DNA of 64,000 nt from a virus (taxonomy: Duplodnaviria; Heunggongvirae; Uroviricota; Caudoviricetes): the IMG/VR virus record IMGVR_UViG_2839610755_000002. One strand, given 5' to 3'. The translations under genes and the position numbers were made by a program. Under the pieces are notes generated by a model. The model made no database searches. It was not told the DNA's origin and saw only the letters and a program-made list of their open reading frames with translations. Numbering within the stretch: the first letter of the stretch is position 1; each line of letters begins with the position of its first letter. Positions 51,944 through 51,977 of this stretch are shown piece after piece.

Positions 51944-51977
51944 TTTGCTCTAATAAATCAAAATTATTAGAGCAATA
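51944..51977. promoter_or_regulatory. abutting inverted pair of C1 operators
   Basis: TTTGCTCTAATAAATCA | AAATTATTAGAGCAATA; about 0.5 kb upstream of copy B. Confidence 0.65.

Follow-up and report, generated by a model that had tools for sequence, protein, structure and literature searches.

The analysed stretch of DNA, a viral sequence of 64,000 nucleotides (hereafter the window), carries between gene 5 and dbn an insertion of about 1.7 kb (window 50317-52029) with c4, icd and ant genes, which we call cassette B. These two genes are 46 bp apart in phage P1. At the head of the insertion lie two convergent 17-bp sites, op1 and op2, resembling operators of the P1 repressor C1, and the region around this pair was 98-99% identical to phages P1 and P7 and to many P1-like plasmids. 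By its sequence, the window is a P1-like plasmid prophage. It is collinear with positions 25653-87618 of plasmid pF1273-3 from E. coli O157:H7 (NZ_CP038378.1) with 99.99% identity, except where an IS3-family element is inserted and where the window ends in an IS copy. Compared with P1 (AF234172), the order is reversed and runs from about 25.9 kb via lox to about 63.8 kb. The c1 gene (21088-21939) codes for a product 98.9% identical to P1 C1, with 3 substitutions; because the window is P1-like and its repressor is that close to the P1 protein, the P1 operator consensus applies.

The window departs from P1 at several other places. The IS3-family element (IS1203-like, 46530-47840) is inserted at P1 position 76182-76185, within tail gene 7, and contains an Rfam match to the ALIL frameshift pseudoknot (46865-46981). 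The insertion is absent from pF1273-3, and a second copy of the IS starts at the end of the window (63277-64000). Since tail gene 7 is interrupted, this copy of the prophage may be defective. The ORF of the dmt methyltransferase (57606-60647, minus strand) codes for 1013 aa, against 2265 bp (about 754 aa) for dmt of P1, and its part 58719-60413 has no match in P1 except for 491 bp at 58903-59393. A segment of about 6 kb (31502-37537), with genes that include ead/Ea22-like and DUF4752 genes according to the plasmid annotation, stands in place of the P1 pmgU-upfO region and has no P1 counterpart.

Operator sites in the window

The search for the 17-mer ATTGCTCTAATAAATTT gave 18 matches with three mismatches or fewer, against 0.22 expected, and none of 100 shuffled sequences reached 18. 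The original prediction, made from the DNA letters, had claimed at least 15 close matches, and every position that it named was present. The P1 record AF234172 annotates 20 single C1 operators, and from these a position-weight matrix was derived. It detected 22 sites of at least 14.5 bits, 19 of them of at least 19 bits, compared with means of 0.54 and 0.065 in 200 first-order Markov sequences, a comparison that is circular for the 16 sites orthologous to P1 and independent for the site of a second insertion (23626), the pair (51944 and 51960), the site at 34807 and the improved site at 18878 (scores in Table 1). The predicted sites thus held up when scored against background. Three further sites (Omat, Oc1c and Oppp, at 17735, 20805 and 43260) have more than three mismatches and were found by the matrix only. 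The annotated P1 operators themselves score 17.9-28.2 bits, leaving aside the degenerate Oc1b and Oc1c, and 22 C1 operators with the same consensus have been counted in P1 (PMC8546580). With a C1 nearly identical to that of P1 and scores like those of proven operators, the sites are putative C1 operators, as had been proposed.

Sixteen sites matched annotated P1 operators both in sequence and in position. The rest of the operator network, beside the pair, is the ordinary, already mapped P1 C1 regulon. This regulon takes in the tRNA region and the ant-like genes, in agreement with the original prediction, which had also regarded three of its parts as unexpected; these turned out to be familiar ones. 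The site at the dmt stop, rightly described as a perfect consensus, is the known Obana, one half of the bivalent operator Op72ab; it had not been paired with its overlapping partner at 57588-57604. The sites at 40494-40559, said to be divergent, are convergent with a 32-bp gap and correspond to the known Op86b and Op86a. A position about 0.5 kb upstream of an antirepressor gene is the layout of P1 immI, with its order of operator, promoters, c4, icd and ant (Op51 at 48140, ant1 at 48688).

The 28-bp unit of Op72ab (57588-57615) is identical to P1 68667-68694, which in P1 serves the ban operon as its bivalent operator. The annotated ban promoters overlap with it, and the tRNA genes, tciABC, ban and dbn come after it on the same strand. 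The leader of this operon contains an extra tRNA-Tyr (GTA) gene (56767-56853, minus strand) between tRNA-Asn and tRNA-Thr; in P1 it has the tRNAs Asn, Thr and Ile(CAT) only. Next to Oppp we noticed a weak convergent match of 11.1 bits (43271-43287, minus strand), present also in P1 (79424-79440). Its 6-bp overlap with Oppp repeats the geometry of Op72ab and Op99ab, although the annotation of P1 treats Oppp as monovalent.

Three further sites are operator-like. The one at 18878, located between cre and c8 and upstream of c8, is unannotated in P1, where the equivalent sequence (1485-1501) reaches 19.0 bits against 22.5 bits in the window and has A instead of the conserved C7. A good operator match was found also at the equivalent position of an E. 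albertii plasmid. The site may serve C1 as an operator for c8, one that has lost strength in the P1 that was sequenced. The site at 8433, in the 5′ end of the darB coding sequence, is identical in P1, which likewise leaves it unannotated, and in E. albertii, and the site at 34807 lies in coding sequence of the 6-kb segment without P1 counterpart; both have changes at otherwise conserved operator positions.

Table 1 Features of the window, with strand and basis of assignment
Feature	Position	Strand	Basis or remark
Ossb (Op21)	4583-4599	-	P1 operator match
Operator-like site in darB	8433-8449	-	16.2 bits
Omat (Op2b)	17735-17751	-	P1 operator match
Oref (Op2a)	18402-18418	-	P1 operator match
Operator-like site upstream of c8, ATTGCTCTAATTATTTG	18878-18894	-	22.5 bits
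Oc1e (Op99e)	20430-20446	-	immC operator cluster (20430-20993)
Oc1d (Op99d)	20513-20529	+	immC operator cluster
Oc1c (Op99c)	20805-20821	+	immC operator cluster
Oc1a (Op99a)	20977-20993	+	immC operator cluster
Cassette A, body	21939-23625	-	Rfam, ORFs, Pfam, plasmid annotation
Cassette A, ant, 3′ ORF (171 aa)	21972-22487	-	KilAC domain (Pfam)
Cassette A, ant, 5′ ORF (257 aa)	22316-23089	-	ORF6N domain (Pfam)
Cassette A, icd	23086-23307	-	ORF
Cassette A, diverged C4-like RNA	23362-23449	-	Rfam
Cassette A, isrK-like leader	23474-23551	-	Rfam isrK, 60.8 bits
Cassette A, single C1 operator, TTTGCTCTAATAAATTG	23626-23642	-	22.0 bits
Olpa (Op94)	26932-26948	-	P1 operator match
Operator-like site in 6-kb segment	34807-34823	+	15.4 bits
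OpmgT (Op88)	38402-38418	-	P1 operator match
OpmgRb (Op86b)	40494-40510	+	Same as in P1 82152-82217
OpmgRa (Op86a)	40543-40559	-	Same as in P1 82152-82217
Oppp (Op83)	43260-43276	+	P1 operator match
O26 (Op82)	44167-44183	+	P1 operator match
Cassette B, GC-rich hairpin, ATGCCCGG-CATCAA-CCGGGCAT with T7 run	50364-50391		Read from the sequence
Cassette B, ant (antirepressor, 344 aa)	50391-51425	-	BLASTP, 78% identical to P1 Ant1
Cassette B, icd-like ORF (73 aa)	51422-51643	-	ORF list; Icd-like annotation in near-identical plasmids
Cassette B, C4 antisense RNA gene (b′ CATGTAC, a′ CTGTCAA)	51691-51776	-	Rfam RF01695 C4, 70.7 bits
Cassette B, a1/b1 decoy targets of C4 RNA (a1 TTGACAG, b1 GTACATG)	51844-51896	-	Rfam RF03163 c4-a1b1, 52 bits
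Cassette B, P51b-like promoter	51890-51918	-	Promoter scan and alignment to P1 P1c4/P51b
Cassette B, P51a-like sigma-70 promoter (inferred)	51935-51963	-	Alignment to P1 P2c4/P51a
Cassette B, op2, TTTGCTCTAATAAATCA	51944-51960	+	C1 operator match, 21.0 bits
Cassette B, op1, ATTGCTCTAATAATTTT	51960-51976	-	C1 operator match, 26.7 bits
Obanb (half of Op72ab)	57588-57604	+	Overlaps Obana by 6 bp
Obana (half of Op72ab)	57599-57615	-	Perfect consensus, overlaps dmt stop
Odmt (Op68)	61898-61914	-	Same sequence and position as annotated P1 operator

Geometry and promoter context of the operator pair

The promoter-distal site of the pair, op1, is oriented with the transcription of the cassette, and its first base is also the first base of the cassette. 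Alignment with P1 immI identified it as the positional homologue of Op51 (Oc4). The second site, op2, reads against cassette transcription and converges with op1, with which it has 1 bp in common. The original prediction of a near-perfect palindromic pair was confirmed except for the length, which is 33 bp (51944-51976) and not 34 bp on account of the shared base pair. Thirteen of the 16 symmetric positions are complementary, with a perfect 12-bp arm on each side of a 7-bp centre. All the deviations of op1 and op2 from the consensus occur in some annotated P1 operator, those of op2 being found in Op53 (T1), Op88 (C16) and Op99d (A17). The palindrome has a predicted hairpin potential of -9.6 kcal/mol (z = -5.6). 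A function as terminator was considered and rejected: despite the 12-bp stem and 7-nt loop there is no T-run on either strand, and the terminator scan was negative.

The sequence alignment with P1 immI also located two promoter-like elements. The P51a-like element, with a -35 box TTGATT (51963-51958), a 17-bp spacer and a -10 box TACCAT (51940-51935), aligns column for column with P1 P2c4/P51a (TTGTAT-17-TATCTT). It has 8 of the 12 consensus positions, which is under the cut-off of the promoter scanner, and its -10 box reads TACTAT in one cassette variant. The P51b-like promoter (-35 TTGATC, 17-bp spacer, -10 TATAGT) is without operator and is kept in all cassette copies. With op1 on Op51 and the promoter elements on P51a and P51b, op2 therefore fills the -35 box and spacer of the P51a-like promoter, a stretch in which P1 resembles an operator at 9 of 17 positions. 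The pair thus has two convergent C1 sites over a putative promoter, in the same orientation as in the P1 operators Op72ab and Op99ab, but these overlap by 6 bp in a 28-bp unit with centres 11 bp apart, compared with 1 bp, 33 bp and 16 bp here. Its overlap and spacing therefore make the pair a spacing variant, outside the exact Op72ab/Op99ab architecture.

Organisation of cassette B

The pair and the site at 23626 both sit in 1.7-kb insertions that are absent from P1 and about 80% identical to the P1 immI region. The original prediction had correctly placed operators about 0.5 kb upstream of two antirepressor-like genes; it had overlooked that these genes belong to extra c4-icd-ant cassettes, that the pair caps one of these, and that its spacing departs from that of the known bivalent operators. 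According to the alignments, the pair is the exact 5′ end of cassette B. The cassette has the elements of an immI-type module, a C4 gene with a1/b1 upstream and a2/b2 downstream, the latter preceding the icd-like ORF. No Pfam match was obtained for this ORF, which overlaps the start of ant by 4 bp, as expected for translational coupling. The Ant protein contains a KilAC domain (PF03374, E = 7e-32).

The GC-rich hairpin marks the 3′ end of the cassette, as seen from the aligned 3′ boundaries of several cassettes, and looks like a terminator for the incoming gene 5 operon. The promoter and terminator scan gave no intrinsic terminator between dbn and cassette B. At the cassette junctions no target-site duplications or shared repeats were seen, and the ORF list and annotation of cassette B include no recombinase and no extra regulator.

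Pairing specificity of the C4 RNAs

Seven leaders were aligned, those of P1, of the canonical module of the plasmid, of cassette B and of four modules of E. albertii p06-3542. The elements a1, a′ and a2, and likewise b1, b′ and b2, co-vary perfectly across the seven. As b element P1 has GTTAGTG, the plasmid's canonical module GATTGTG and cassette B GTACATG, and the E. albertii cassettes add ACGAATG and ACTTACG; the a element is of two types, TTGACAG and TTAGCAG. Among these leaders, those from a single plasmid always differed in their combination of a and b. The heteroimmunity of P1 and P7 is accepted to depend on the pairing specificity of C4 (PMC12197685), and because of this cassette B most likely regulates only its own ant.

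Cassette A and the canonical immI module

The second insertion, cassette A (21939-23647), lies between c1 and pacB. Its single operator is 3 bp from the pacB stop. The isrK match is found upstream of the C4-like RNA, where P1-type cassettes have the a1/b1 decoys. The ant gene is split by a frameshift and is probably a pseudogene; in E. albertii the homologue is intact, a single gene of 1116 bp. In the full plasmid (NZ_CP038378.1) the canonical immI is retained with a single Op51 and an Op53, the module being at 1476-3068. As it is kept besides cassettes A and B, the plasmid has three antirepressor modules. E. albertii p06-3542 has five icd-ant modules, all of them different.

Extra ant insertions have been reported between pacB and c1 in pTZ20_1P and RCS47, and in region RD-1 of pSvP1 (Venturini et al. 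2019, PMC6906374), and icd-ant1/2 homologues at non-canonical sites were noted in the same work. Cassette A is at this same pacB/c1 position. That study contains no analysis of operators, of C4 specificities or of the dbn/gene 5 site, and the word "operator" does not occur in it. We found no analysis of the operators of extra ant cassettes in the literature searched, and no description of the abutting pair in that literature, which excluded the primary P1 operator papers.

Distribution and conservation of the pair

The pattern TGCTCTAAT-N(0-30)-ATTAGAGCA was found at 40 loci in IMG/VR. Seventeen of them are P1-like, all with a gap of exactly 11 and so with the architecture of the pair; in the remaining 23, all from unrelated DNA, the gap length is scattered. 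The PLSDB plasmids that carry the 66-bp pair region number 75, with 89 places in all, and come from E. coli, E. albertii, Shigella and Salmonella; in the GenBank phage collection the region is present only in vB_EcoM-Ro157c2YLVW. The dbn/gene 5 cassette is absent from the reference phages P1, P7, D6, SJ46 and RCS47. In the GTDB species-representative genomes the exact pair pattern gave no match; with a variable gap there were 48 matches, which all fell in unrelated taxa, and chance alone would give about 34. From these negative scans it follows that the pair was confined, among the collections searched, to plasmids of Escherichia, Shigella and Salmonella and to P1-like viral contigs.

Cassettes headed by the pair occupy at least four backbone positions: between dbn and gene 5, between pro and lydE, in place of ref, and after mat. 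The upstream flanks at these loci are unrelated, and homology begins at base 1 of op1. Entry of the cassette by recombination at a pre-existing backbone operator was considered and discarded, as P1 has operators at no more than one of the four target positions.

Nine distinct cassette heads were compared. The 33 bp of the pair have 1 variable column (3 with one decayed copy) against 13-15 in the 33 bp downstream, a conservation measured among closely related cassettes that partly reflects recent common descent. The op2 sequence is invariant in eight of the nine heads, and op1 is a perfect consensus in most copies. One E. albertii cassette has a decayed op2 beside a perfect op1, so loss of the second site is possible and, at least in some cases, tolerated. 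The single Op51 of P1 may be a further-decayed state of the pair.

Discussion

As originally described, the dense set of operators matters little: it is the P1 C1 regulon of the textbooks and could be transferred by annotation. The network itself is already known, and the pair is a spacing variant of a known operator type. We propose that the pair probably acts as a two-site C1 operator on the C1-sensitive promoter of cassette B, an extra and self-contained unit of the immI type. The sites with their scores, their conservation, the make-up of the cassette and the co-variation of the C4 elements were observed in the sequences; binding of C1 to both sites, the assignment of the P51a-like promoter and the regulatory consequences are deduced from the annotation of P1 and from what is established about its biology. 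The minus-strand order of cassette B is op1/op2, P51a-like and P51b-like promoters, a1/b1, C4, a2/b2, icd, ant and the terminator-like hairpin. In the lysogen, one C1 monomer would sit on op1, at the position of P1 Op51 and overlapping the -35 box, and a second one on op2, over the rest of the -35 box and the spacer; together they would shut the P51a-like promoter. The operator-free P51b-like promoter would continue to supply C4 RNA, which would pair only with the a2/b2 of its own cassette and so block the synthesis of Icd and Ant. If C1 activity dropped, the P51a-like promoter would fire, the extra target RNA would titrate C4 and Ant would be made, inactivating more C1 and reinforcing derepression.

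In a different view, only op1 works as an operator and op2 is a passenger, for example the relic of an ancient operator duplication or recombination, with a conservation that is apparent only and due to the recent divergence of the cassettes. Op51 stands alone in P1 and in the plasmid's own canonical immI, cassette A has one operator, and the E. albertii copy retains a perfect op1 beside its decayed op2. We nevertheless consider such a passive op2 unlikely, since in the same cassettes the 33 bp downstream vary at 13 columns and the pair at 1, its score of 21 bits is as high as those of the proven Op2a and Op94, and it falls exactly on the -35 box and spacer of the aligned P51a element.

Since the pair stands at the very start of a cassette that has unrelated genes upstream of it in each of four contexts, its location would suit a role mainly at a distance or as a barrier, either as a C1 roadblock or insulator against read-through from the upstream operon (here ban-dbn) into icd-ant, for which the stretch without intrinsic terminator after dbn would leave room, or as an anchor for C1-mediated looping with other operators. 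In P1, looping through C1 has been described for the Op99 cluster. We judge this role improbable here: active C1 represses the upstream Pban at Op72ab, so that a roadblock would seldom be needed, and the positional match to Op51/P51a is sufficient to explain the pair. The perfect 12-bp inverted arms around a 7-bp centre, the predicted hairpin potential and the coincidence of the cassette boundary with the first base of op1 could also suggest the site of another dimeric protein, or a site for recombination or mobility of the cassette, the likeness to C1 operators being coincidental. This is very hard to reconcile with two halves that both match the full asymmetric 17-mer including its non-palindromic 3′ tail, with an op1 that is a perfect consensus in most copies, with the lack of target-site duplications and of matching repeats at the other cassette end, and with a cassette that encodes neither a recombinase nor an extra regulator; such a coincidence seems to us scarcely credible.

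Two further points count against the two-site proposal. The P51a-like promoter falls short of the cut-off of the scanner, and two bound C1 monomers, their centres separated by 16 bp and not 11 bp, would face nearly opposite sides of the helix, so the cooperative or Lxc-dependent behaviour of the proven bivalent operators cannot be assumed. The pair could serve to probe whether the action of two C1 monomers, and that of the co-repressor Lxc, depends on contact on the same face. On a broader scale, we tentatively suggest that P1-like plasmid prophages might stockpile operator-capped immI cassettes of about 1.7 kb, each with its own C4 and target specificities, as a combinatorial system in which mobile cassettes would have the pair as their conserved 5′ cap; we hold this idea with less than even confidence. 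If it is true, the extra C4 types of a resident prophage would silence the matching antirepressors of incoming relatives, and an extra Ant of the invader that is not silenced by resident C4 would help to overcome the C1 immunity of the resident. Several orthogonal c4-icd-ant cassettes acting on one C1 would then shape the coexistence and displacement of P1-like elements, and P1-like plasmids are frequent among pathogenic and among drug-resistant E. coli, E. albertii and Salmonella.

Comparison with known systems

The closest relatives of the pair are Op72ab (Obanab) and Op99ab (Oc1ab), which likewise consist of two asymmetric 17-bp convergent C1 sites with the transcription-sense site first, forming an imperfect palindrome over a sigma-70 promoter. 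The wider spacing of the pair puts its centres about half a helical turn further apart. Moreover, the second half is weak in these operators (Obanb begins ATTACAC, and Oc1b has 5.9 bits), whereas both halves of the pair are strong.

The immI region of P1 and P7 (Op51-P51a/P51b-c4-icd-ant1/2) has the same order and spacing of elements as cassette B, with about 80% nucleotide identity and 78% identity between the Ant proteins. It differs in having one operator in P1 where cassette B has two, and in the b-specificity of C4 (GTTAGTG in P1, GTACATG in cassette B). Cassette B is also an additional copy and, unlike the immI of P1 and P7, is not followed by kilA-repL. A more distant parallel is the immI region of P22, where ant is controlled by Mnt and Arc operators and by the antisense RNA sar. 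As in cassette B, an antirepressor is silenced there by a protein operator together with a small antisense RNA; the proteins and RNAs of P22 are unrelated to those of cassette B, and the likeness is one of analogy only. Both sar and c4 are covered by a review (PMC12197685).
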